Part shown: positions 1-26,100 of the stretch, piece by piece | Position numbering within the stretch: the first letter of the stretch is position 1 | Layout of the letters: every line of letters starts with the position of its first letter | DNA from: Anolis carolinensis | Lineage: Eukaryota | Reading direction: 5' to 3' | Length of the DNA: 64,000 nucleotides | Assembly: GCF_035594765.1 (NCBI RefSeq) | Contig: NW_026943819.1 | Location: forward strand, 1,426,001-1,490,000 | Position numbers and translations under genes: made by a program | The notes under the pieces: model-generated | Told to the model about the DNA's origin: nothing | The model's database searches: none | Seen by the model: the letters and a program-made list of their open reading frames with translations, nothing else

Positions 1-296
1 TGACACGAAAAAAAAAAACCCCCTCAGTGGAAATGGAAGTCTCCTTTAGACCTCAGTGGAGGCAGATGCATGTTTGCATCAGACCTCAGTGGAGGTGGAT
101 GCATGTTGCTGTTTGGACTTCATAATAATAACAATAATACTTTATTTATACCCCACCACCATCTCCCCGCGGTGACTTGGGGCAGCTTACATTGTTACAA
201 AAGTAACAACACAAATACATTAGCACAATATACACAGGTTAAAACATAATAAGGTAATAAAACAAAGTTAAAACAAAAGTTAATACAACAATAATA

Positions 297-939
297 CAGT
301 AGAGTCTCACTTATCATATCATGATATTTTGGTGCTAAATTCGCAAATACAGTAATTACTGAACTACAGTAGAGTCTCACTTATCCAAGACTCGCTTATC
401 CAACGTTCTGGATTATCCAAGCCATTTTTGTAGTCAGTGTTTTCAATACATCGTGAAATTTTGGTGCTTAATTCATAAATATAACATAATGTTTTGGTGC
501 TTAATTTGTAAAATCACAACCTAATTTGATGATTAATAGTCTTTTCCTTAATCCCTCTTTATTATCCAAGAAATTTGCTTATCCAACATTCTGCCGGCCT
601 GTTTATGTTGGATAAGTGAGACTCTACTGTACTTTTTCAGTCAAATTTGTTGTATATTTGCAATTCTATATTTGTAGTTAATTTGTTACTAGCCAATGTT
701 TTTGTAGTCAATGTTTTCAATACATTGCAATGTTTGTTTTGGTGCTAAATTCATAAATACAGCAATTACTACACAACGTTACCATGTATTGATTTATCAA
801 TTCGTTGTACAACATGCTGCTTTGGTGCTTAATTTGTAAAATCACAACCTAATTTGATGTTTAATAGGCTTTTTTCTTAATTCCTCCTTTTTATCCAAGA
901 TATGAGCTTATCCAAGGTTCTGCCGGTGAGACTCTACTG
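297..939. mobile_element. Nested Tc1/mariner (Tigger/pogo-like) MITEs; inner copy 367-629
   Basis: TIR CAGTAGAGTCTCACTTATCC / GGATAAGTGAGACTCTACTG flanked by TA. Confidence 0.8.
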
Positions 940-1167
940 TAGTACTTATAAGTATAATAATAATGACAACTTATAAATACTATTTATACATAATAATAAT
1001 AATAAAACTGTATAAATAATACATACCTATAAATAATACTATGATTATACTATATAATGCAGATAAATAATAGTGTTACAAATAATAATAAATACCTATA
1101 AACAATAGTACTAATAAATAATAATAAACAATACTTATAATATAATGAAAATAAATAGTTATAAATA

Positions 1168-1488
1168 CAGTAGAGTCTCACTTATCTAAGACTCGCTTAT
1201 CCAACGTTCTGGATTATCCAACGCATTTTTGTAGTCAGTGTTTTCAATACATCGTGATATTTTGATGCTAAATTTGTAAATAAAGTAATTACAACATAAC
1301 ATGACTGCGTATTGAACTACTTTTTCTGTCAAATTTGTTGTATAACATGATGTTTTGGTGCTTAATTTGTAAAATCATAACCTAATAATGTTTGATAGGC
1401 TTTTCCTTAATCCCTCTTTATTATCCAACATATACACTTATCCAGGGTTCTGCTGGCCCGTTTATGTTGGATAAGTGAGACTCTACCG
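1168..1488. mobile_element. Tc1/mariner-type MITE (CAGTAGAG family)
   Basis: Both TIRs present, TA TSD. Confidence 0.85.
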
Positions 1489-1631
1489 TATGTTATTTTT
1501 CAAAGAAGACTTTGTTTTTTTAATCTCTGAGTGCATGTTTTAAACTAAGAGTTTTCAAGGGAGGGCCTATCTTTTGGGCAACTGCAATTTCAACTTTAAA
1601 GAAACAACCATCCTCTGCTAAACAGATAGAT

Positions 1632-2354
1632 ATTTCTGTCGTGGCCTGTCTTTGGTCCTCGGCAGTTCGAAGACATGGTTCTTCAGTCTAACCGCTGAGT
1701 GCCCTGTGTGCCATGGCATAAACGCTTATGAATATCACTTGTTCAGACTTCTAGCAAGGTCGTGTTTTTTTCCCCTTGGCGAGTGGTTTGCAAAAGGGGG
1801 GCATCCTGATGTTCATGGAGATTCGGATATGTGCCCAGAGACTGGCTACAGTTATTTCCCAATACAGTAGAGTCTCGCTTATTCAATATTCGCTTATCCA
1901 AGCTTCTGGATTATCCAACACAGTTTGCCTCCCACCCTGATCCACAGCTGTTTCTCTAGGCAGCGAGGACTGAACTTTTTATGGATTTAATTTCCAACAA
2001 TGTGGCTACTGTAAGGTCATTTAATGCAGTTCTGTCTTTATTTGTAGCCAATTTCTTAGTAACCAATGTTTTGTCAGTCAATGTTTTCAAAATACAGTAG
2101 AGTCTCACTTATCCAACATAAACGGGCCGGCAAAATATTTTTGTCGTGGCCTGTCTTTGGTCCTTGGCAGTTCGAAGACACGGTTCTTCAGTCTAACCGC
2201 CGAGTGCCCTGTGTGCCAGGGCATTAAACGCTTATGAATATCACATGTTCAAGGTAACAAGGTCGTGTTTTTTTTTTTCCCCCTTGGCGAGTGGTTTGCA
2301 AAAGGAGATTGGGATATGTGCCCTGAGAATACTGGCTACAGTTATTTTCCAATA
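1632..2354. repeat. ~220-bp direct duplication (1632-1864 and ~2138-2354) separated by MITE fragments
   Basis: TGTCGTGGCCTGTCTTTGGTCC...ACTGGCTACAGTTATTT(T/C)CCAATA occurs twice. Confidence 0.85.
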
Positions 2355-2399
2355 GTTTCTAATCAAAGGTTGAGTGGCTGTCTGTGGGGAGGGTTTTTG

Positions 2400-2720
2400 G
2401 CGGCCCCCTCCTCGGGCACTCACTCACCTGGCGAGGCGGAGAGGAGCAGCATCGGGAGCAGAGGGAAGCCGGCCATCCTTCCTTTTCTTCTTTCCTTCCT
2501 TCCTTCCTTCCCGGCCCTCACCCCATCCTCCGGCTTCCTCTGCGGCGGGAGAGGCTCGCAATGCGGCGCCGCGCGCCGTGGGACCCACGCGTGCCCCTGG
2601 CCCCGCCCACAGGCCCTTAGCCCCGCCCACAGGCCCCTAGGTGTGGGGTGAAGGTGGGCCGGACAAAAGGACGGCCCACGCGGGGCTTCAGGGCTCCTTC
2701 CTGGCTCCTCCTGCCAGACA
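2400..2720 (-). promoter_or_regulatory. CpG-island promoter with duplicated GC boxes
   Basis: CpG-dense segment; two CCCCGCCC (Sp1-type) boxes in a tandem duplication at ~2602 and ~2620, upstream of the ATG at 2476. Confidence 0.55.
2428..2476 (-). CDS. TMEM25: Probable first coding exon (signal peptide) of transmembrane protein 25; rest of gene presumably left of the window
   Basis: aggATGg Kozak at 2476; encodes MAGFPLLPMLLLSASP(G), a hydrophobic signal-like peptide; phase-1 donor CAG|GTGAGT at 2428/2427; lies in a CpG island. The identity rests mainly on synteny (KMT2A-TTC36-TMEM25 on the same strand); no downstream exon recognised in 1-2400. Confidence 0.5.
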
Positions 2721-2744
2721 GACAGAATTGTCGGGTTATCCATT

Positions 2745-3963
2745 CTCCTTGTCGATACAGGGAATGCCGTGGATGTAGCCTGTCTGGATTTCAGGAAGGC
2801 CTTCGACAAAGTCCCCCACGACCTTCTGGCAAGGAAACTAGTCAAATGTGGGCTAGACAAAACTACGGTTAGGTGGATCTGCAATTGGCTAAGCGAACGA
2901 ACCCAAAGGGTGCTCACCAATGCGTCGTCTTCATCATGGAAAGAAGTGACAAGTGGAGTGCCGCAGGGCTCCGTCCTGGGCCCGGTTCTGTTCAACATCT
3001 TTATTAACGACTTAGACGAAGGGTCAGAAGGCACGATCATCAAGTTTGCAGACGACACCAAACTGGGAGGGATAGCTAACACTCCAGAAGACAGGAGCAG
3101 AATTCAAAACGATCTTGACAGACTAGAGAGATGATTGGCCGAAACTAACAAAATGAAGTTCAACAGGGACAAATGCAAGAGACTTCACTTCGGCAGAAAA
3201 AATGGAAATCAAAGATACAGAATGGGGGACGATGCCTGGCTTGAGAGCAGTGTGTGCGAAAAAGACCTTGGAGTCCTCGTGGGGAGGAAGGTGAACATGA
3301 GCCAGGAATGTGATGCAGCAGCTAAAAAAGCCAACGGGATTCTGGCCTCATCAATAGGGGAATAGCGTCTAGATCCAGGGAAGTCCTGCTCCCCCTTATT
3401 CTATTCTGCCTTGGTCAGACCACTTTACCTGGAATCACACTGAGTCCAATTTTGGGCACCACAGTTGAAGGGAGATGTTGACAAGCTGGAAAGCGTCCAG
3501 AGGAGGGCGACTAAAATGATCAAAGGTCTGGAGAACAAGCCCTATGAGGAGCGGCTTAAAGAGCTGGGCATGTTTAGCCTGCAGAAGAGAAGGCTGAGAG
3601 GAGACATGATAGCCATGTACAAATACGTGGAGGGAAGTCATAGGGAGGAGGGAGGGAGCTTGTTTTCTGCTGCCCTGCAGACTAGGACACGGAACAATGG
3701 CTTCAAAATACAGGAAAGGAGATTCCACCTGAACATCAGGAAGAACTTCCTCACTGTGAGAAAGGCTGTTTGGCGGTGGAACTCTCTGCTGCAGAGTGTT
3801 GTGGAGGCTTCTTCTTTGGAGGCTTTGAAGCAGAGGCTGGATGGCCATCTGTCGGGGGTGCTTTGAATGCGATTTCCTGCTTCTTAGCAGGGGGCTGGAC
3901 TAGATGGCCCATGAGGTCTCTTCCAACTCTACTATTCTATGATATGATATGATTCTATGATTC
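2745..3963 (+). mobile_element. 5'-truncated, disrupted CR1 LINE (RT C-terminal half plus 3' UTR)
   Basis: RT motifs [32 protein letters not shown] and FADD; in-frame stop at 3132-3134 and frameshifts; ends in the (TTCTATGA)n CR1 tail. Confidence 0.93.
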
Positions 3964-3997
3964 TTGTGCACCAATGCACACATTTCCATAGATAGAT

Positions 3998-4131
3998 CAG
4001 CCATGGGCAAACTTGGGCCCTCCGGGCGTTTTGGACTCCAACTCCCACCATTCCTAACAGCCGGTAGGCTGTTAGGAATGGTGGGAGTTGGAGTCCAAAA
4101 CGCCCGGAGGGCCCAAGTTTGCCCATGCCTG
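3998..4131. mobile_element. Near-perfect palindromic hAT-like MITE (~134 bp)
   Basis: CAGCCATGGGCAAACTT...AAGTTTGCCCATGCCTG; almost the whole element folds back around a 4-nt loop (GGTA); no clear TSD; related fragments near 58390 and 61027. Confidence 0.75.
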
Positions 4132-4341
4132 TGTATGTGTCCTTTGCTTATATTATTATTATTATTATTATATTATTATTATATTATTATTGGAATGGAC
4201 TTTGCCTATGTGCCAATGCCTCTATGCATTACTGGAGTGCCCTTTGCCTATGTGCCACTGTCCCCATATATTACTGAAGTGAGCGTTGTCTATGTACTAA
4301 TGTCTCTCTCTATATTATTGGAATGTCCCTATACAGTATTG

Positions 4342-4767
4342 CAGGGGTCCCCAAACTTTTTAAACAGAGGGTCAGTTCACGGTCCCTCCAACCGTTGTAG
4401 GGCTGGATTGAAAAAAACCCCTATAAACAAATTCCTATGTACACTGCACATCTCTTATTTTGAAGTAAAAAAAACCAAACGGGAAAAAAATACAGCCTCT
4501 ATGTTAATCCCAATCATAATAAAAATAATATAGAGGGTTGGAAGAGACCCCTTAGGCCATTGAGTCCAACCCTCTTCTGCCTTTGTGCACCAAAAGCACA
4601 AGCAAAGCACCCCTGACAGATGGCCACCCAGCCTCAATGTTAATAATGATGATAATAATAATAATAATAATGCATCACACAGCCCTAAACGCTTGGGAAC
4701 TTGTGATTTGTGATACAAAATCCAGCATATATATCTCGTTTGCTGTGTTATACTGTGTCTTTGTGTC

Positions 4768-4806
<39 letters not shown>

Positions 4807-5044
4807 GATTGGAAGAGACCCCTTGGGCCATTGAGTCCAGCCCCCTTCTGCCTTTGTGCATCAAAAGCACTAGCAAAGCACCCCCTTGGTAATTAATTAA
4901 TTAATTATTAAATAATAATTAAAATACCATTATAAACAAGCAAAGCTCTGGAAGGTGCACACTGGGCAAGGGAGGAGGCGGGGGCTGGATAAATGGCTTC
5001 GATGGGCCATATGTGGCCCCCGGGCCTTAGCTTGGGGACCCCTG
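4342..5044 (+). mobile_element. Non-autonomous hAT element
   Basis: TIR CAGGGGTCCCCAA...TTGGGGACCCCTG; 8-bp TSD cagtattg/cactattg (1 mismatch); a second family member lies at 61565-62145. Confidence 0.85.
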
Positions 5045-5049
5045 CACTA

Positions 5050-7040
5050 TTGGAATGGCTTTTCCCTATGTGCCAATGTCCCTATACATTATTGGACTGG
5101 CCTTTTCCCTATGTGCCAATGTCCCTATACATTATTGGACTGGCCTTTTCCTATGTGCCAATGTCCCTATACATTATTGGACTGGCCTTTTCCTATGTGC
5201 CAATGTCCCTATACATTATTGGACTGGCCTTTCCCTATGTGCCAATGTCCCTATACATTATTGGACTGGCCTTTCCCTATGTGCCAATGTCCCTATACAT
5301 TATTGGACTGGCCTTTCCCTATGTGCCAATGTCCCTATACATTATTGGACTGGCCTTTCCCTATGTGCCAATGTCCCTATACATTATTGGACTGGCCTTT
5401 TCCTATGTGCCAATGTCCCTATACATTATTGGACTGGCCTTTCCCTATGTGCCAATGTCCCTATACATTATTGGACTGGCCTTTTCCTATGTGCCAATGT
5501 CCCTATACATTATTGGACTGGACTTTTCCTATGTGCCAATGTCCCTATACATTATTGGACTGGCCTTTCCCTATGTGCCAATGTCCCTATACATTATTGG
5601 ACTGGCCTTTCCCTATGTGCCAATGTCCCTATACATTATTGGACTGGCCTTTCCCTATGTGCCAATGTCCCTATACATTATTGGACTGGCCTTTTCCTAT
5701 GTGCCAATGTCCCTATACATTATTGGACTGGCCTTTTCCTATGTGCCAATGTCCCTATACATTATTGGACTGGCCTTTCCCTATGTGCCAATGTCCCTAT
5801 ACATTATTGGACTGGCCTTTCCCTATGTGCTAATGTCCCTATACATTATTGGACTGGCCTTTCCCTATGTGCCAATGTCCCTATACATTATTGGACTGGC
5901 CTTTCCCTATGTGCTAATGTCCCTATACATTATTGGACTGGCCTTTCCCTATGTGCCAATGTCCCTATACATTATTGGACTGGCCTTTTCCTATGTGCCA
6001 ATGTCCCTATACATTATTGGACTGGCCTTTTCCTATGTGCCAATGTCCCTATACATTATTGGACTGGCCTTTCCCTATGTGCCAATGTCCCTATACATTA
6101 TTGGACTGGCCTTTCCCTATGTGCCAATGTCCCTATACATTATTGGACTGGCCTTTCCCTATGTGCCAATGTCCCTATACATTATTGGACTGGCCTTTCC
6201 CTATGTGCCAATGTCCCTATACATTATTGGACTGGCCTTTTCCTATGTGCCAATGTCCCTATACATTATTGGACTGGCCTTTTCCTATGTGCCAATGTCC
6301 CTATACATTATTGGACTGGCCTTTTCCTATGTGCCAATGTCCCTATACATTATTGGACTGGCCTTTCCCTATGTGCCAATGTCCCTATACATTATTGGAC
6401 TGGCCTTTCCCTATGTGCTAATGTCCCTATACATTATTGGACTGGCTTTTCCCTATGTGCCAATGTCCCTATACATTATTGGACTGGCCTTTCCCTATGT
6501 GCCAATGTCCCTATACATTATTGGACTGGCTTTTCCCTATGTGCCAATGTCCCTATACATTATTGGACTGGCCTTTCCCTATGTGCCAATGTCCCTATAC
6601 ATTATTGGACTGGCCTTTTCCTATGTGCCAATGTCCTCAAATAGGATTGTAGTGCTCTTTGCTTATGTGCCATTGTCCCCATACATTATTGGAGTGCCAC
6701 TTGTTTATGTGCCAATGTCCCGTATTGTAATGTCCTTTACCTATGTGCCAATGTCCCCATACATTGTTGCCCTTTGCTTATGTGCCAGTGTCCCTATATA
6801 TTATTGGAGTGCCCTTTGCCTGTGTGGCGTTGCATGAATTCCTATATAGGACTGACCTCTGCCAATGTCCTCATATATTATTGGAATGGCCTTTCCCTAT
6901 GTGCCAAAGTCCTCAAATAGGATTGTAGTGCTCTTTACCTATGTGCCATTGTCCCCATACATTATTGGAGTGCCCTTTGCCAAGGTGTCAGTGTCCCTAT
7001 ATATTATTGGCATGGCCCTTGACCTATGTGCCAATGTTCC
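5050..7040. repeat. 42-bp minisatellite: ~38 near-identical units (5050-6635) plus degenerate flanking units
   Basis: Unit TTCCCTATGTGCCAATGTCCCTATACATTATTGGACTGGCCT; degenerate copies at 6635-7040 and 4185-4341. Confidence 0.97.
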
Positions 7041-7117
7041 TGCTCAGAGGTTCTGCCTTTCACCCCTGTGTTAACCATCATCATGAGCAGCAGCCAAGGA
7101 CTGGACGAGGCCTCTGT

Positions 7118-9543
7118 TTATTCAGCCAGGGTGCCATTGGGGAGGGGGCCTTCTTCCCTTTTGGGTGGTCCCTGCAGCTGCTTCATGACCTCGGAGAGCA
7201 TCCGGTTGCAGAGGGCGGCGTAGGGGTTCATCCGCACCAGCTGCTGCCGGGCAAAGGGGCTCCCCAGCCGGGCCGCCTCCGCAAAGTCCCCGCGGGCCGC
7301 TTCCTCCTGGCCGCGCCAGAGCCGGATCAGGCCCCGCTGCACAAAGCCCTGCCGGGCCGCCGGGCCGCTCCCTCCGCTCAGGCTCAGCGCGGCCTCCAGG
7401 TCCCGCAGGGCACCTTGGGGAGAGGAAGAGAGAGACCCGTGAGTGTCCGCACCGCATTGGCAAGACCGTTGCCGGATTAACCGAACCCACTTACCCTCAG
7501 TGTCGCCCTTGAGCCGCAGGGCCTGGGCCCGGTTGTTGTAGGCGGAGGCCCGCCCAGGGAGCAGCAGGATGGCCTCTCCAAAGGCCTCCAGGGCCGCCTC
7601 CAGGTCTCCGGCTTCTGCCCAAGCGACTCCTTGGACCTCCAGGTCGGTGGCCTGTTTCAGCAGGTCCGGGTCGAAGGCGCCTTCTGCTGCCCCAAGAGAA
7701 AGGAGAGAGAAAGGCTTGGTCAAAGGACTCCAGAGCTGGGCAGACGGGGTGCAAACATCCCCTCGAAACAGGGTACAAAAATACCCGGGAACCCTTGTAG
7801 ACTTGGGACTTTATTTGGACTTTACTTGAGAAGACTTTCTTGAGAGCGGTGCTCCATCATCATTTTCTTCATTCCAGTCTACAGCAACATGACCAACCGT
7901 CTGTTTACTTTGTTTGGAAGATAGTTTCATGATTATGTATCCCTGAAGCCTATATACATTGGAACCAATATCAGACTTGGATCACTTTTGTGTTAGAGCT
8001 GTTGCTCCTTTTCATTTTCTCTGGTACAGTAGAGTCTCACTTATCCAACACTCACTTATCCAACGTTCTGGATTATCCAACGCATTTTTGTAGTCAATGT
8101 TTTCAATATATCATGATATTTTGGTGCGAAATTCATAAATACAGTAATTACTACGTAGCATTACTGCGTATTGAACTACTTTTTCTGCCAGATTTGTTGT
8201 ATAACATGATGTTTTGTGCTTAATTTGTAAAATCATAACTTAATTTGATGTTTAATAGGCTTCTCTTTAATCCCTCTTTATTATCCAACATATACACTTA
8301 TCCAGGGTTCTGCTGGCCCGTTTATGTTGGATAAGTGAGACTCTACTGTACTACCAAATTGAGCTTTGTACGGGGAACTTTAATAATACTATATGCTATA
8401 ATATATAATATATATAATACTATATGCCCCAGTGGTGAAGTGCGTTAAAGCACTGAGCTGGAGACCGAAAGGTCCCAGGTTCAAACCCTGGGAGCGGTGT
8501 GAGTGCCTGCTGTTAGCCCCAGCTTCTGCCAACCTAGCAGTTCGAAAACGTGCCAATGTGAGTAGATCAATAGGTACCGCTCCGGCGGGAAGGTAACGGC
8601 ACTCCATGCAGTCATGCCAGTGGCCACATGACCTTGGAGGTGTCTACGGACAACGCTGGCTCTTCGGCTTAGAAATGGAGATGAGCACCAACCCCCAGTG
8701 TGTGAGTAGATCAATAGGTACCGCTCCGGCGGGAAGGTAACGGCGCTCCATGCAGTCATGCCAGTGGCCACATGACCTTGGAGGTGTCTACGGACAACGC
8801 TGGCTCTTCGGCTTAGAAATGGAGATGAGCACCAACCCCCAGTGTGTGAGTAGATCAATAGGTACCGCTCCGGCGGGAAGGTAACGGCACTCCATGCAGT
8901 CATGCCAGTGGCCACATGACCTTGGAGGTGTCTACGGACAACGCTGGCTCTTCGGCTTAGAAATGGAGATGAGCACCAACCCCCAGTGTGTGAGTAGATC
9001 AATAGGTACCGCTCCGGCGGGAAGGTAACGGCGCTCCATGCAGTCATGCCAGTGGCCACATGACCTTGGAGGTGTCTACGGACAACGCTGGCTCTTTGGC
9101 TTAGAAATGGAGATGAGCACCAACCCCCAGAGTCAGACATGACTGGACTTAACGTCAGAGGAAACCTTACCTTTTACTATGCTATTTGGACATATTTTCT
9201 TTGTACATAGACCATCTTGTGTTTGTGTACTTTTCAAGTATTCTGGGATTTTGTATAGCAGAGGGGATGCAAAGCCAGGTCTTGCACGTTAAGGTACATG
9301 GCCAAGTTGCAGTGGGATCAGGGTATGTGACCCAGAGCAAGAGGCCTCAGTTCCCACTTCCCTTGTGCCGTAGCCTCCGCTTTGCAAAGGAGACCACGCT
9401 GGGTTCCCACAGCCCTGGATCTGGACCAGCTCACCTTCTTCCCCTGCGGCATCTGGCTCTTCGTCCTCGGACTCCTCCTCGTCGAAGGGGGTGTTGGGGT
9501 GCAGGATGCTCTGCAGGACGGCCCTGTCCTTGGCGCTGGCCAT
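7118..9543 (-). CDS. TTC36: Tetratricopeptide repeat protein 36, 3 exons, ~198 aa
   Basis: Exons 9543-9435, 7686-7495, 7413-7118 with GT-AG boundaries, total 597 nt in frame. Motifs [29 protein letters not shown] (TPR) and [17 protein letters not shown]. Lies downstream of KMT2A as in other amniotes. Confidence 0.93.
8027..8348. mobile_element. Tc1/mariner-type MITE in TTC36 intron 1
   Basis: Both TIRs, TA TSD. Confidence 0.85.
8426..9177 (+). mobile_element. Sauria SINE with 4x144-bp internal tandem amplification
   Basis: tRNA-like head (B box GGTTCAAACC), ACCTT-type tail; repeat units start at 8557, 8701, 8845 and 8989. Confidence 0.85.
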
Positions 9544-9765
9544 GGCGGAGCCCAGGTGAGAGGAGACAGGCAGGAGCTGGGCAAACAGAGGGAGGAGGCC
9601 ACCCTTCCCCAAAGTGGCCAATGGCAGGAGGGGGCAAGGCCGGGCCCCACCTCCTCAGGCCTGGACTCGGTGGGTGTTCACATCCGTGTCTGCAAGGGCC
9701 AGACTTTGGACCCTCTCCAAAGGCTGGGGAAGATCCTCCTCTTTTGGAAGTCCACACAGCGACAT

Positions 9766-10165
9766 TGTAGGAGACTAGCCCGGAGGGGAAGGAAAGGAGA
9801 GAATTCCAGGAGAGCAAAAAAACAAGCCTTTTATTGTTATCTCAGCTGATGATAAGGCAAAACAGCCGTAGGCACCCACTTCAGTGGGTCCGTATTATGC
9901 AATTGGCCGTTGCAACATGTGAGTAGCAAACAAAGAATTTTATATCTCAGCTTATCTAAATTTGACCAATGGCTGAGGGTCTTCCTCACCTTCCACACCT
10001 ACTTGGCATAAGTGATACCAATGACCCAACTTGTTGATTTCAAGCTAACTTTTGGTCTTGGAACATTCTGGAGAAAGGCACCAGCTCACAGGAAGGCAGG
10101 GGCATATGCACAGGCAAAGCGACATAGGCAATAGTTTACTATTTTTCTGGCTTATGGTCCTTACA
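9766..10165 (-). mobile_element. Solo LTR upstream of TTC36
   Basis: TG...CA termini; 4-bp TSD ACAT (9762-9765 and 10166-10169); minus-strand TATAAAA at 9944-9938 followed by AATAAA at 9835-9830. Confidence 0.72.
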
Positions 10166-10197
10166 ACATAGGGATGAATTACCTTGTGCTAGCAGAA

Positions 10198-10450
10198 GCA
10201 GCTGTGGCACAATGGGTTAAACCCTTGTGCCGGCTGAACTGCTGGCCTTAAGGTTGGGTTGCTGACCAGAAGGTTGGAGATTCGAATCTGCAAGGCTGGG
10301 TGAGCTCCCGTCTGTCAGCTCTAGCTTGCAGGGACATGAGAGAAGCCTCCCAGGAGGATGGTAACACATCCGGTTGTCCCCTGGGCAATGTCTCTGTAGA
10401 AGGCCAATTCTCTCGCACCAGAAGCGACTTGCAGTACACTCTCAAGTCAC
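10198..10450 (+). mobile_element. tRNA-derived SINE (Anolis SINE2-like)
   Basis: TGGCACAATGGGTTAAACCCTTGTGCC head with B-box-like GATTCGAATC; inverted relative at 43100-43370. Confidence 0.7.
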
Positions 10451-10528
10451 TCCAGTGTGGACTGCATCTGTCCCCCCCAAAATCAACAAACGCAAAGACC
10501 AGCCTGTGAAGCAATAAACTTGGACATG

Positions 10529-10534
10529 TTTATT
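10529..10534 (-). terminator. Probable KMT2A polyadenylation signal (3' UTR ~2.3 kb)
   Basis: AATAAA on the minus strand at the end of an AU-rich distal UTR, followed by a GU/U-rich sequence. Confidence 0.6.
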
Positions 10535-11608
10535 TAATTAAACTATCACTTAAATAAAAAAGTGCATAGAAAATAAACATGTTTAAAAACTCCTTTTTTT
10601 TGTACAACTATATACACTTTTGTCTTTTTTTAATTTTTTACATTCAGTCTTTCAGTCATTCCTCAAACTATTATTTTTTTGTGTGAAAAGTACTTTCCTT
10701 CCTCCCTGCGGCGAAGGGCAGGGAATTAACACTGATGCAGCACGAGACGTGTTTCCTCTTTTGAGAAAATAAAATAAAAACCCCAAAAAACAAGAAATCC
10801 CCAAAACAGTTTGGAAGAACACAAGAAAGGAGAAGAAGAAAAAAGAGCAATTGCTTGTACATGATAAGTTGTATTTGAACGGAAGGAACCCTGTGATGCG
10901 GAGCGGTTTTTTTTGCGCGGCGGGAGACAGTAACGATTTCATGACCGGCGGCTATCGAGAGACGGGACACCACGAACGCCGAAGCTGCGGGGACACGGCA
11001 CGGTTGTTTCACGCCATCGACGGGACCCAAGGGACGGAAGGAGAGGCAAAGGCTCTCGACAAGGCTCCTCGCTCTGCACCGAAGGGCCAAAAGCCCCCGG
11101 ATCGACTCCCCACAAAGCCCTTTGCCTGCCTCCGGAGACACTGGGACACGGCTGTTGTTTCTAAAAGTGTTAAAGAGAATTCCAAGCCAGGCTTCAAGAC
11201 ACGGCAGCGGCGGCGGCAGCGGCGGAGGATGATGAGTATTAGTTCCTATATATATACCATTATTTATAACTGCAAGGGTTGCAAGTGAGTGAGGAAGAAG
11301 GGGCCGCAGAGGGCAGCCCGGCAACGGTCAGTCCATGATTCTGCGCAAGAGAGGAACCCGGTATTGCTTTGCCGCAAACGGAGGTTGGGGAAGGAGGAAG
11401 AGGTTGCAGCCCAGCCCTTTTGCAGCAGCGAGGGACCCGCCTGGCCTTTGCGGAAAGAAACCCCGCGAGAGGTAAAGCCTCATTATCATCATCATGATTG
11501 TGGTCAGTTCTGGTTGAATGTGAGGTTTGACGGAAGCCTATCCCAAAAGAGCTGCTCAGTGGTTCACTAACCAACTGGCCACTCAGGGCAGCAACAGCCA
11601 GGAAGCAT

Positions 11609-11970
11609 CACCATCATCACTCTTGTACCCCTGGGCCTGTTCTGCCTGGCCCTTCAAAGGCAGAGGCTACGGAAGAAAACTCCAAACTAACACCATCATC
11701 CCTCTTGCACCCAGGGCCCGTTCTGCCTGGCCCGACAAAAGCAGAGGCTACGGAGGAAGAGGAGGCCCTGGAGCAACTGTTGGGATGTGGCTCCGCTTTC
11801 TCCCAAAACGAGAAACCACTCCGAACTAACACCATCATCACTCTTGCACCCTGGACCTGTTCTGCCTGGCCCTTCAAAGGTAGGCTATGGAGGAAGAGGA
11901 GGCCCCGGAGCAACTCTTGGGATGTGGCTCCTCTTTTTCCCGAAATGGGAAACCACTCTGATCTAACACC
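11609..11970. repeat. Three imperfect tandem repeats (~82-139 bp) in the KMT2A 3' UTR
   Basis: CACCATCATC(A/C)CTCTTG...GTTCTGCCTGGCCC recurs at 11609, 11691 and 11830. Confidence 0.8.
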
Positions 11971-12846
11971 AAGGCGGCGGAGGAAGAAGAAGGCCGGACT
12001 GCTCATGGTCCAGCGTTTGGATATCCACGGACATTGACACGTCCGGCATTTGAGACGGACCCCGATGCCCAGAGGCAGAGCCTGATGGGAAGAGGAAGGG
12101 AGGAAGAGGCCGCTCGGCCCCCTGCCCACTCCCAAAGCCCAGGCCCCCCTGCCCAAGGCCTCCCCCCTTCGGAGGAGACGGTCTTGGAGGACGCCACAAT
12201 TGGGAGAAAAAAAAAAGGAAAGACAAATAGTCCCATAAGTACTCTTCCCTTACGAAGTGCTGCTTCTCATAGAAAAATATACAAAATATATTTACATTTA
12301 CAAAAAACCTTAAATACGCAAGCTGTAAACAGAACCGGGTAAGATCCAATGACGCGACCGGGGGGGGGGGGGGGGCAAACTCAAAAGGGGCGGAAAGGAA
12401 GTTGTGCTGCTGCTGCGTTTCGGAACGGGAACAGGGCCGGCCTCTCTGGGGACAAAGCGGGGGGGGGGGGGGGTGCTTATCTCCCTCCCAGTGCAAACCC
12501 ACATCCCCCACCCTCCCCAGTGCCACCCCTCTTTCCATTTTGGAAGCAGTGGTTTCCTAGAAGGCTTTGCCTCCAACATGGATGCCCTGGGGTCCCCTCT
12601 GGCGGCAGGACAGCAGGAAGGAAGGCTGGCCCCCTCCCCTGAGTGCCCCTCCCTCCCTCCCTCCCCCCCAGACCCTGAATTCATGGAAGCTGCCCGAACC
12701 AAGGCCAGGGCTGGCCTCAGCGATCTCCCTTTTCTGGCCTGAGGAACCAATGGAGGAGTGGAAAGGACCCCGCCTTTCCACAAAGCCCACCCCTCCCTTT
12801 GCAGCCAAAGGGCGGGGGGGGGGGGTCGGCCCCTCGGGCAGGAAGC

Positions 12847-15800
12847 TCAGTTGAGGAACCGGCGGCACTTCTTGGCACCGCAGTTGCAGGGCAGCTTGTT
12901 GCTGGCGTCCTCGATGGGGAACTTGTAGTCGTAGGTCAGCTCCTCCCCGCGGAAGATCTTGCGCATGGCGAAGATGACGATGTGCTTCTGCCCGTCGATG
13001 TTGATGACCCGGGAGAAGCAGTTGGGCTCGCAGGAGTGGTTGATGAAGCGGGCCGCGTTCCCGTGCATGGTGGCGTCCACCACCTCCGCGTCGTCAATGC
13101 GGAACATGTAGCAGCCGATGTCCTGGAAGAGAGATGTTGGGTGAGTGGGCTTATCAACAGCAGACCCTCCCCATAACCGTATAGCAGAACAATATGGTTG
13201 CAGTATTTACACAAACAAGGTTTCTATAACACTAATAAAGTTCTGTATACTTCCTTCTTTGCTTCCACGCTGGGCTTCTTTCTCATACAGATAAACAGCT
13301 TCGCTCTCATAGAACCTCCTCTCACAACAAATTTACACAGTAGCTTTACACACAGCAGCAGCCTTCATACAGGAGCTTCACACACAAGGCCTTCAACCTG
13401 GGGCTTCTCTTTGAATGCGATTTCCTGCTTCTTGGCAGGGGGTTGGACTGGATGGCCCATGAGGTCTCTTCCAACTCTACTATTCTATGATTCTATGATT
13501 CTAGAAGCTTCTCACACCAGGCCTTCTCATACAGAAGCCTACCTCACACACAGAGACCTACTTCACCCTGAGGCCTACCTCACACAGAGGCCTTCTCTCA
13601 CTGTGACTGACTAACACTGAATACCACACAGAAGTGTTCTCTCACTTTCTTTGGGGCAACACTTGACTCACATTTTTTTGTAATTAAAAGTCCCAAGTTA
13701 ATTTCTGACAAGAGAGATGGGGAGGAAGAGGTCAGATCCCAAGGACCAGCCAAGCAGCGAAGGCCAAACGGGGGGACGGAGACTCCGGTTGCCAAGGTCT
13801 CACCTTGCTGTCGTAGTACTTCTCCCGCTTGTCAGTGAGAATGGAGCGGATGACGTTGCCGGCGTATTCGATCACCATCTCGCCGGCGTCGATGTTCCTC
13901 TTGCAGAACAGGCCTCGGCCGTGGATGGGGGATCTGTGACAAGAGGGGCAAAGTGGGTGGGACCATGGGTGCCACCCGTCCGAGCGGCCTCTCGCCACCT
14001 CCCCTCCGCTCTCCCACCCCACTGACCTGTAGACCCCGACGGCCTCCTTGGAGGTCTTCTTCAGGTGCCGGAAGCGCATGGGCATGGGGAGGTCCATGCT
14101 GGTGGCCCTCCTGCAGAAGGGAGGAAGGGAGGAAGGGGAGGAAGAAGGCTGCTTGAGAGCCCCCTGCAGCAGAGCTCCTTGCCACGAGGGAGGGCCGGGC
14201 AGCTCTTCTCGGCAACCGCTCCGTGGCCCCAATGATCCCTTGACACCCCTCCCTCCCTCCCGCAGACAAGATCAAGAAGATGCGGCCTTTGAGCCCCCCC
14301 ACCAACTCGCCTCCGCACCCGCTATGTACCGGGCAGACTTCAGCTGCACCTCCTCCTCCTCCTCCTCGTTGGGGTGGTACTCGGGCGGCTGGCGGTGCTT
14401 GGAGGCCAGGAAGTTGAACATGTCAAAGGCAGACTTCCTGCAGGGCAAGTGGGGGGGGGGGGGGGGGAGAAGGTCAGGAAGGTGGTCTTGGCCCCCTCAC
14501 CTGCCTCTTGGGTGACTCTTGGAGCCCTTTCCTGCACCACCAACCCCACCACTGCTCCCAGATAGGGCTCTGCATTGGCTCCTGCATCTATGGGGTCAGT
14601 TCCTTGTGCCCATGGCCTTCTCTCTCTTCTCCCAGCAAGGAAATGGGCTCCAGCTGGTGCCACGCAATGGATGCCCAGAGAAAGGCAGGGCCTGGGAGTA
14701 GAGTGCAGCCGCACTTCCTTCCCAACAAGGCCCTGCCCTGCCTCAGCCCCTCCAGTCTCCCCAGTTCTCTTGGGGTCCTCGGTGCCACTTGCCTGAGGTG
14801 CACTTCGGCCCTGGCGGAGCCATGGGGGTTGACGGGGGGCTCCTTGGTCTCCTCCGGTTTGTGGAAGCGGAACTTGTAGTTGTGGCAGTGCTTGGCGCCG
14901 TAGAGCTGCTCCACCAGGAAGACCACGGCATCGTGGAGAAGGCCCAACATCCGCAGCCCACTCACACCTGCAGCGGGAGGAAGAGAAGGGAGAACCGGGG
15001 CAGGAAACGTGTGACCCCCACTCAGCTCAGCTCCGCCCATCCTGAGGTCACAAGAGGCTCCGAGAGGGACTATGCACTTTGACCAAAGCGTCCCACTAGC
15101 ACGTGATTGAACCTCAAGAACATAGCCATCTCTACTAAGCACTTACTGGACAAGATCTGACTGTTGCACTTTATGGAACCAAACTTTAACGAGCTACCTG
15201 TAATATTATATCACGAGACCCCCTATTAATTCGAACTACTCCCAGACTGAGTAAAGAACACTACAGCATCTATTGTTCGGAATAAGCACTAATGCACTTT
15301 AGAGATAAACTGTATAGTTGCTATTATAATTAACATCAGCTGTGGGGTTAGTACACAATTAGGGTAATAGTGGGGAGCAGGGAGGGGTCAGTTAGGGGGC
15401 GGGAAGGTTCGGTGGGTAATTGGTGTAAGAAGTGGCCTTAAAAGCAACACAAATAGTACACTCTGGAGCCCCTGAGGAGGTGTGGCCACAGGCCTCACAC
15501 AGCCACGGCTCTTGGGCCTGAGGCAGACAACAATGGTCCAGGGCAACCCAAGCACCACCCCGGCAAGACTTATTGAGGATTCTGGATGAATGGATTCTAA
15601 TCTTGGACATGCTTAAAATTTTATATAATGTGATTTTATTTTGTAATGTTTTATATGAATTGTTGTTTTGTAGATTGTTTTATATGAATTGTTGTTTTTA
15701 TATTGTTTTTAGGCATTGAATTTTTGCCTATTTATTGTAAGCCGCTTTGAGTCCCCTCGGGGAGAAAGGCGGGGTAAAAGTGATGTAAATAAATAAATAA

Positions 15801-23100: not shown

Positions 23101-26100
23101 AGACGCAGCGCTTCCGGGCATCCATCGTGCTCCAGTACACCCGGGAGCACCTGCGGAGACACCCCAAAGGCGTGTGCGGCAAAGAAGTGCACAGGGCAGC
23201 GGCAATAGGACCTGACACCTGCCCACGCTTTATTTTTGGGCTCAGAGCCCCTTTGGGAAAGTGCCCAGCAACTACTTGGGGATGAGGCTGTACTTACTGG
23301 TAGCCAATGGGGAAGAGCTTGTCTTCACAATCTGAGAGGTCATTCAGGATCCCGAGGCAGTCGATGGTCATTGAGCCTGCATGGAATCGGCCCAGGAGAG
23401 GTTATGTCAGGGCTGGGAAGGGGCCTCGTGCCCCTGCAGCCCTCACCAGGGACCAAAGCCTTACCGATCATCATGTGGATGTTCTCCGGCTGCAGGCCAT
23501 TCAGAAACCGTCGCCTCAAACTGATCCCTTCAAAGTCCACAAAGACTCTTCTCAGGACCTCAAAGCCATTCTCTGGCACCACCTGCACAGGCAGACAAGA
23601 GAAGTCCGGACAGCTGAAGAGCATGCTGGGCAAAGGGACCCAAGCGGAGTCTGCTTGCCAAGGGCAAGAATGGGGCGCCTGCTCACCTCCCCTTTGATCA
23701 GGTCCCGGTGGCGTTGGCAATACACTTTCTTGTCCTCCAGGAAGATGCAGTTCTTGGCCCGGGAGCACATGAAGTGGTAGTTGCTTGTGCAGGAGGTCAG
23801 GCAGCAGCCCACCGTGGCCCCAGGCCTCTGGCAGAACTCACATCTCTGCAAGACAGGTTTCAGTGTTAAGGGGAAAAGAAATGCTTCGATGGAAAGGACA
23901 TGGTGATCCAAAGTAGAAGGGGACGACTGTCCGTTCCAAAGGAGTCAGCCAATGGTAACGTGAGAGAAGGGCTACTGCACAGTAGGAGTTTGGGGATCCC
24001 TTCCCATTTTGCATGCAGAGATCTTATATTTGGAGACTCAAGAAACACAAAGCACATGAATCCCCATGTGCTTCCTTGTTAACAAGTGGGAGAGGGCCCT
24101 ACTGTTGCTGCTTTAGAAATTCATGGCCATGATTCCCATAAACCCTCCTCCACTCACCAGCTGCTTCCCGCGGATCAGGGCCATGTGCACGTTCTTCAAG
24201 GAGCCGCCGTCATCCTCAAACACCTCCGCTGACCACAGGGCGCAGTTCACGTGGGCCCACTCGTTCTGGCCGACGTAGAGGAGCCGCCCGGCATCCTGAA
24301 GGAGACAGAGTGGAGCCTGGGTCAGCTGGGCAGCGAAGGGCAGGCCTTGGAACTGGGGGCCGCCCACCGTTCACCACAGGCCCCTTTCTTGGCACAGCAC
24401 CACTTACGTTTCCCCCGTCATCGCCATACTTCAAGCAAAGCGCACACTGCCGGTTGTCTTCCACATCTGGAGGAGGGGCAAGGTCTGGGCCGTCCTCCTG
24501 GGTTCTGTCGGGATCTACAGAATAAACAACACAAGAAGAGGAATGTGCCCATCCTGACCAGGGAGGAAGAGGAGGAGGGAGCTGGGAACTGGATGCTGAA
24601 GACAGCAATTGCCAAAACAGGAAGGCACTTCCAGGGCCTTGCTCAGTTTTGCTTTTTTGAAAACCAAACACAAGCAGTGATGCAGCACCAGAGGGAGGGA
24701 AGCCACCTTCAGCCAGACCCCTGGGCAGCAGCTGGATCAATGTCAGAAATATTAAAAATTAACTAGGTATTTTTAATTACAAAGATGTGAGTCAAGCACT
24801 GAAATTGATGCAATGACTCTGCAAAAGATACAGTTCAATATAAGTAGGTGTGCCTGTAGCTTAGTAGGCCTCAGTGTGAGAGAGGCCTCGGTGTGAGAAG
24901 GCCTCTGTGTGAGAAGTTTTGGTGAGAGAAGCTCCAGTGTGAAGGCTGCTTTTTTTAAAGCTACTGTGTGAAGCTCCTGTGTAAGTTTGGTGTGAGAGGA
25001 GGCTCTGCATGGAAAAGAAGCCCAGTGTGGAAGCAAAGAAGGAAGTATAAAGAACTTAATTTGTGCTATGAAAACCTTGTTCTTGTAAATAGCACAACCA
25101 TATTATTTCACTATAAAGAAAAGCCTCCAAAGGAAGAGATAACATCGGTCTGTGCGATTTTGTTCTTTGTATCTCTTTTGGCTACTGGTGCTGAGCCATG
25201 CTGCTGCTAATAAGTTACTCTGCGGTGCATTCATGGGGAGGGCCTTTTGCTAATAAGCCCACTCGCCCAACAATCATGTCATAAGCCCTCAGACAGGCCC
25301 CAATGCTAAATAGATTCCCAGATGCCCCACTGCTGCCCCGTAGAGCCCTTATTCCTTACTGGTGGACAGTGGTGTTGGTGGAGGCATCGGGGTTGGGGAG
25401 TCCGGCTCTCCAGGCCCCTTGGGCCGCGGGGCAGGAATGATCTTCTTCATCAAGGGAGGCTGCTGGGCACAGCTGTTCTCCTCACGCTCCTGCCACTGAG
25501 CGTAGTTGTGGTCGAGCGACGGGGGCAAGACGGCGTTCGGCAGCATCCCACTGCTGAAAGGTACCGAGAGAAGGGAGAACCGGAGGGGGGGGGGGGATCA
25601 GGCGAGCCCCTCCTCACTCCGGAGACACAAGGGATCTTGCAAAGGACAGCATCCCAGAAGCAAAAGACTGTGTCTCAAAAGCCAGCTCTCGCCTTGCTTT
25701 CAAAGCACGAGAGCGGCGGCATCCCCAAGACCACCAAAGTTGCTTACTTGGGTGTAACTTTATTGGGTTCCCAAAATCTTGATTTCTTTACGCTGAACCA
25801 CGGAAACACACGCTCCATTTGCTAAACAGGGAGGGAAAATAGTACTTGACAAGATGTGTGACCAAATATTCTCGAGAAAGATGCAAATTTACATCCAGGC
25901 CAATTTATTAGGGGCAAAGTTAGGCCTTAAATTGCTTCCCAGGCAGCAAGGAAAGACTTAAACAGAAATAGGGGGACACTGAAGCCCTGGCATCGCATGC
26001 TGGAGGAAGGGCTGAACCGTCTCACCCGGATAAAGAAGGACTTCACCATGCCGTTGGCCTTCTTCAGCTCCGGCTGCCCTCCGTCCGCATTGATGGCGGC

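Follow-up and report, generated by a model that had tools for sequence, protein, structure and literature searches.

Introduction

Retroelements are known to contribute branch points and acceptors to pseudoexons, as described for LTR78/AluJ in F8 intron 18 and for L1MD3 in GPR143 (PMC7951965), and in exonized inverted Alus the branch motif CUAAU is reported to pre-exist in the element (PMC4315302). Insertions beside an existing exon have been counted in the mouse, where 6 of 10,150 full-length intronic LTR elements were within 20 nt of an exon, 1 of the 6 being near an acceptor, and sense LTRs lying within 20 nt of acceptors are reported as the arrangement most depleted among fixed elements and as one enriched among mutagenic ones (PMC3088655). 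As to the signal itself, the region 19-37 nt upstream of the exon is described as containing 90% of mapped human branch points, and human CUNAN motifs as accompanying C-rich tracts and exons of high GC content (PMC4315302), while at least two branch points are reported for 95% of deeply sampled human constitutive introns, pairing with U2 being a poor predictor of use (PMC5959240).

Here we describe a locus in which the branch-point region of a constitutive exon appears to have been swapped, and in which, of two rival acceptors, the predicted stronger one is apparently unused. This is intron 35 of KMT2A in Anolis carolinensis, which lends itself, as a natural test, to asking how insertions are buffered by redundant branch points and by exon definition. 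It is an uncommon natural experiment, the mechanism itself not being new; a published report of the insertion was not found in the literature listings, the scope of which ended short of supplements and subscription journals.

Results

The last exon of KMT2A is intact and single-copy

KMT2A occupies the minus strand of the window, that is, of the whole stretch of 64,000 nucleotides that was analysed, and its large exon gives a 99% match to a RefSeq KMT2A of Anolis carolinensis. Mapping of the RefSeq protein P0295 onto the window returned 36 exons and 35 introns with exact translation, the introns being very short (median 177 nt). In this P0295-based model, in which all features lie on the minus strand, exon 35 occupies 13804-13933, the donor of intron 35 (GTGAGA) 13798-13803, intron 35, the 35th of 35, 13803-13123, and the coding part of exon 36, the last exon, 12847-13122. 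The latter codes for the last 91 residues of the protein, which belong to SET and post-SET, and its product matches human KMT2A SET-domain structures. The RefSeq models P0121 and P0295, both predictions for A. carolinensis, join exon 35 to 13122, read YYDSK-DIGCYMF and carry the whole SET domain at their end. A pseudogene or spare copy was considered and ruled out, since the 36 exons reproduce P0295 exactly and the genome holds a single locus for the last exon, the runner-up match being an 88%-identical paralogue on C12.

Four residues of exon 36 (D, A, F, F) depart from most amniotes. The first codon (13120-13122, minus strand) encodes Asp where 115 of 117 scored homologues have Gly, and three further SET-domain changes, Ser to Ala and two Tyr to Phe, lie within 12850-13122 (minus strand). 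All four are common to the A. sagrei models, and the Asp, but none of the other three, is also found in Sceloporus. Judging by its presence in both Anolis and Sceloporus models, the Asp is older than the LTR described below, and relaxed selection after the insertion was ruled out as its origin; the presence of all four residues in the A. sagrei models likewise argues against any LTR-linked decay of exon 36.

Elsewhere in the gene, intron 32 (14792-14438, minus strand) was found to be a GC-AG intron, its donor being GCAAGT. Just after this point a number of RefSeq models from squamates (A. sagrei P0296-P0298, Rhineura P0127 and Eublepharis P0128) end in ...RQV, and they are devoid of the SET domain; retention of intron 32, or annotation failure there, is thus recurrent among squamate RefSeq models.

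A solo LTR splits the acceptor of exon 36

A solo LTR of 576 nt, with TG...CA termini and in sense orientation to KMT2A, lies at 13135-13710 (minus strand). It is flanked by a 5-bp target-site duplication, the exon-side copy TCTCT (AGAGA on the plus strand) at 13130-13134 and the upstream copy at 13711-13715, and between the LTR end and the first base of exon 36 at 13122 there remain 12 host nucleotides (13123-13134, TCTCTCTTCCAG), consisting of 10 pyrimidines and the AG, with no other adenosine. Beyond the LTR, at 13711-13735, are found the upstream part of the pyrimidine tract and the displaced original branch motif CTGAC (13731-13735, A at 13732). The original prediction, that an LTR 12 nt from the SET exon and flanked by AGAGA had split the acceptor, leaving the old CTGAC upstream and placing CTCAC at 13141-13145 with its A at -20, was borne out by the sequence in its coordinates and motifs. 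It also named the 5-bp duplication correctly, although the string it gave for the rejoined acceptor drops 7 nt, the true empty site being 2 nt longer. A 7-bp duplication was rejected as an effect of the TC repeat, the family making 5-bp duplications. In the empty site reconstructed with 5 bp, the old branch A would sit at -29 and the original tract comprises 25 pyrimidines in 26 nt. The further statement that most of this tract was displaced is correct by length, the 10 pyrimidines beside the AG having nevertheless stayed in place.

The left junction of the LTR occurs at one locus in the genome and was bridged by contigs of two of the four runs used, out of 24, from two studies, with 0 and 1 differences, the two contigs being unspliced and possibly pre-mRNA or DNA. 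An assembly artefact was ruled out on these grounds, as was an insertion confined to a single animal. Contigs from organism B cover exon 35 and the repeat nested in the LTR (described below), not the LTR itself, a gap that is no sign of an empty site.

The element belongs to a dispersed LTR family, for which a first look gave 895 candidates, 40 of them scored, and for which 162 exact matches to the 20-base end motif were found in the genome, a lower bound that may include some local duplicates. Among 38 copies with both ends defined, the 5-bp duplication was perfect in 23 and had one mismatch in 8 more, while perfect 4- or 6-bp duplications were found in none. The intron 35 element thus shows what is expected of a solo LTR, namely TG...CA termini, a duplication of fixed length and dispersed copies. 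A full-length parent element, with the internal region, primer-binding site and second LTR by which ERV, Gypsy and BEL are told apart, was not found among the 12 of 13 end-plus-TGG matches examined, in which downstream sequence was common only to neighbouring loci resembling local duplications. In copies L073-L075 and L079-L080 (on C2 and C3) the sequence downstream is common to them and their near neighbours, a pattern that resembles segmental duplication of the locality, not a shared internal region.

A sister LTR lies in the same gene at 24741-25272 on the plus strand, antisense to KMT2A and inside intron 19 (24515-25359). It carries the duplication ATCAA/ATCAT and is clear of both splice sites, with ~90 nt separating it from the donor and ~225 nt from the acceptor, and, as had been noted, reads CTCGC at the motif equivalent to -20. 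It is the usual tolerated arrangement and a good contrast to the LTR of intron 35.

Probable branching from within the LTR end

The region from -19 to -37 of the exon 36 acceptor now consists entirely of LTR sequence and holds two yUnAy motifs, both on the minus strand. The first candidate is CTCAC at 13141-13145, with its A at 13142 (-20), a product of CpG decay seen in ~30% of copies; the second is TTGAT at 13153-13157, with its A at 13154 (-32), where yUnAy is the usual state of the family. Since the 12 host nucleotides offer no adenosine beyond that of the AG, and 64 AGs stand between the old branch A at 13732 and exon 36, the branch point now serving exon 36 very probably belongs to the LTR, provided that the acceptor at 13122 is used. 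In this respect the original prediction, that the displaced branch point was replaced by one within the LTR, is very likely correct.

The original prediction went further, holding that a G>A transition at 13142 had supplied a replacement branch adenosine, by which the insertion came to be tolerated in an essential gene; on this reading the new base was needed and would have been selected as a rescue. The first part of this, that the A arose by CpG transition, agrees with the family: when the consensus at this base was checked, CG was the commonest state (80 of the 162 exact end matches), followed by CA (49, the intron 35 copy included), TG (31) and TA (2). The change thus makes CTCAC at -20 from the state of most copies. 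The same A is, however, present in 49 of 162 copies wherever they are located, without a splicing role, so that it is not rarer than chance decay, as exaptation through a gained and selected base had been taken to require. The ratio of CA to TG was 49:31 (p = 0.057), and other CpG sites of the family show similar decay. Across 66 aligned copies the A state showed no clustering, nearest neighbours agreeing in 35 of 66 cases as compared with a mean of 33.3 after shuffling (p = 0.40), and an A-bearing subfamily as source of the base found no support, the 10 nearest copies being 7 CG, 2 TG and 1 CA. Moreover, yUnAy was found in 77 of 227 random 35-nt intronic stretches, which makes the motif at -20 no more than chance, and 18 of 34 other KMT2A introns are without yUnAy at -45 to -14.

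The motif at -32 also bears on whether a rescue was needed. TTAAT was present there in 20 of the 22 BLAST-chosen copies in which the end was found (it was not found in 7 of 29), and yUnAy in 60 of 65 other copies overall, 42 fetched loci having been chosen by patterns that fix part of this motif. The LTR thus offered a branch motif on arrival, nearly all copies of the family having one. The change from TTAAT to TTGAT is private to the intron 35 copy (1 of 66) and still leaves yUnAy, and this private drift, whether before or after the change at -20, can be read in favour of a rescue, as can the slightly better pairing of the -20 site with U2 (-2.4 against -1.8 kcal/mol in a rough duplex calculation). 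On the other hand, branch points are usually multiple and U2 pairing is reported to predict their use poorly (PMC5959240). Furthermore, a rescue would have been needed soon after insertion, and CpG decay at this site reached only about half of the copies over the whole age of the family; as a harmful allele could not wait for such decay, the mutation at -20 is an unlikely cause of the tolerance. The claim of an essential gene is itself weaker for exon 36, deletion of SET in mice being reported to spare viability and fertility and to cause skeletal and Hox defects (PMC6647185). Taken together, we consider it unlikely that G>A at 13142 was selected as the needed branch point, and neither the explanation of tolerance by this base nor its exaptation was upheld.

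The -20 site, being C-rich ahead of a C-rich tract and a GC-rich exon, may well be the main branch site today, which does not imply that it was once required. The CUNAN pattern known from humans, together with the private change at -32, would be consistent with a shift of the main, or the necessary, role to the -20 site.

A decoy acceptor at the LTR start

The original account of the splice site was right about the split acceptor; it overlooked both a decoy acceptor at the other end of the LTR and a private deletion within it. The family starts with TGTCAG in 30 of 38 two-ended copies, and placing this start behind the displaced CTGAC and a 21-nt tract produced a new acceptor, whose AG lies at 13705-13706 (minus strand), ~26-28 nt past the old branch A. 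With the original branch motif and tract upstream, an AG-free zone of 76 nt and an AG of normal strength, it has what is expected of a cryptic acceptor at the edge of a transposable element. The two competing acceptors of intron 35 stand 582 nt apart.

Acceptor strength was scored with a small position matrix built from the remaining 34 acceptors of KMT2A. By this measure the empty site reached 13.3 bits, the decoy 12.4 and the acceptor that exon 36 has now 6.0, so that, given the small matrix, the decoy is at least as strong as the present acceptor. The decoy was the best of the 66 AGs in intron 35 and scored above 22 of the 34 true KMT2A acceptors, the present acceptor above 7 of the 34; among the 34 other introns only 2 have an unused AG that scores better than the true site. 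The score obtained with another base at -20 was disregarded as a small-sample effect.

Use of the decoy, if real, would add six codons (KLTWDF) before a TAA stop in the seventh (13684-13686, minus strand; YYDSK-KLTWDF-stop), with loss of all 91 SET/post-SET residues. The product could take the form of a longer last exon, in which case there would be no downstream junction to trigger nonsense-mediated decay, or of a 59-, 126- or 162-nt cassette ending at 13646, 13579 or 13543 and spliced through donors in the LTR. These donors scored 7.6, 7.2 and 7.2, within the KMT2A range of 3.7-11.3. Substantial use is possible given 12.4 against 6.0 bits, and by analogy with the mice that survive loss of SET some leak may be tolerable (PMC6647185).

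Against this, the decoy peptide is absent from both A. carolinensis members of the RefSeq cluster and was present in none of the 304 proteins fetched, and the changes in exon 36 are limited to those common to A. sagrei. The sequence past the decoy is AT-rich and silencer-like. Its first 60 nt have 32% GC, whereas at least 43% follows each of the 35 true acceptors, and it contains TGTG at 36/kb and TAGG at 12/kb, as compared with 8/kb and 1/kb in the other introns. Motifs of the TGTG/TAGG type bind splicing repressors. As to transcripts, the joint of normal splicing and that of the decoy are both missing from the 15 of 56 joints listed from contigs of four runs. In all four, contig cover leaves out the first bases of exon 36, a gap that is evidence of nothing. 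Contig depth in one run came to ~74 over exon 35 as against ~4 over the intron next to it, a measure that cannot rank parts of the gene. A SET-truncated KMT2A made through the decoy at a real rate thus appears rather improbable; possible real use is nonetheless the most interesting point of the locus.

A more elaborate reading joins the two ends of the LTR, a single insertion having rewired the last intron of a master regulator of chromatin: its 3' end would have taken over branching for the SET exon, while its 5' end completed, out of displaced host signals, a stronger rival acceptor that in green anoles yields a regulated, catalytically dead and decay-escaping KMT2A isoform, with the private deletion and the A at -20 fixed as compensations. 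We regard it as quite unlikely.

A private deletion and a nested repeat within the LTR

Near its 3' end the intron 35 copy, alone among the 66 copies, lacks ~112 nt, the junction (13180-13191, minus strand) lying between two short TGCTATA-like repeats. In most copies the lost segment holds TATAAA and AATAAG. TATAAA is found in the last 250 nt of 46 of 65 other copies, whereas the intron 35 copy has neither motif anywhere, a state that, for the last 250 nt, only 2 of the 65 others share, the count for AATAAG being inflated by the search patterns. Harm would be expected from a promoter in sense orientation, or from a poly(A) signal, placed just ahead of the last exon, so that the deletion may have been favoured. 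An explanation could be built on this alone, in which tolerance came mainly from selected trimming (formation of the solo LTR and the private loss of promoter and possible poly(A) signals), the identity of the branch point never being limiting. The deletion, lying between short direct repeats, may instead be a neutral slip; four other copies have gaps of their own of 30-68 nt, in a family whose copies span 358-1444 nt; and TATAAA and AATAAG are only putative signals of the element. This explanation is very unlikely.

Nested in the LTR, at 13411-13503 on the plus strand, is a piece of ~93 nt from the 3' part of a non-LTR repeat of very high copy number. This piece has an ATTCTATG tail, is taken to be CR1-like and is absent from the other LTR copies. 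With this gained repeat, the private deletion and ~10.5% divergence from the nearest family copies at non-CpG sites, the intron 35 LTR is to be considered old.

Pieces related to the nested repeat were noted at 3861-3957, 36801-36881 and 56900-58250 of the window. Among its other repeats are near-perfect tandem arrays at ~4978-6800 and 8413-9132, with units of 42 nt and 144 nt, and many copies, in both orientations, of a short element starting TACAGTAGAGTCTCAC (365-1493, 8025-8353 and 44362-49421), presumably a non-autonomous DNA transposon.

Finally, continued service of exon 36 by the old branch point at 13732 is extremely improbable, for although this site pairs with U2 better than do the other four candidates (-4.4 kcal/mol), distant branch points require an AG-free path and here 64 AGs precede the exon, that of the decoy being the first.

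Discussion

The explanation that we favour, with moderate confidence, is a tolerated takeover of a core splice signal, in which exon 36 is spliced at its original AG through redundant branch points inside the LTR end. The pyrimidine tract of the last intron of KMT2A received a sense-oriented LTR element, and the original AG is likely still used, judging by the RefSeq models and the intact, conserved exon. Branching would occur at -20 and/or -32 inside the LTR end. For this the built-in -32 motif of the family was probably sufficient at the outset, while the A at -20 would be a later and common CpG decay that likely now shares or leads branching. The decoy at 13705 would be mostly ignored because the sequence downstream of it (32% GC, dense in TGTG and TAGG) is unlike KMT2A exons and exon 36 is well defined. 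Larger harms may have been removed by reduction to a solo LTR, assumed here from how solo LTRs form, and by loss of the TATA-like segment. The insertion is thus a tolerated one, with no adaptive gain shown, and the base proposed as its rescue belongs to the ordinary background of the family. Some form of compensation is plausible, sense LTRs less than 20 nt from an acceptor being reported as rare and often mutagenic in mammals (PMC3088655).

The tolerated takeover resembles the pseudoexons of F8 and GPR143, as described, in that a retroelement gives a predicted branch point and part of the 3' splice site. Those are new or disease pseudoexons, with LTR78 in antisense, whereas the KMT2A LTR is in sense, serves an ancient constitutive coding exon and displaced its branch point. 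As in the exonized Alus reported, the KMT2A family carries a ready motif, at -32, before any new mutation. The Alu, however, also supplies the tract and the AG and makes a new exon, while in KMT2A the AG and the nearest tract remain host-derived. The multiplicity of branch points (PMC5959240) explains why the loss of one need not be fatal, these data being human, not lizard. The KMT2A LTR shares the sense, <20-nt configuration reported for LTR elements (PMC3088655); that report concerns human and mouse, and its <20-nt counts are of full-length elements, whereas the case described here is a lizard solo LTR, fixed or at least widespread, in a gene of short introns.
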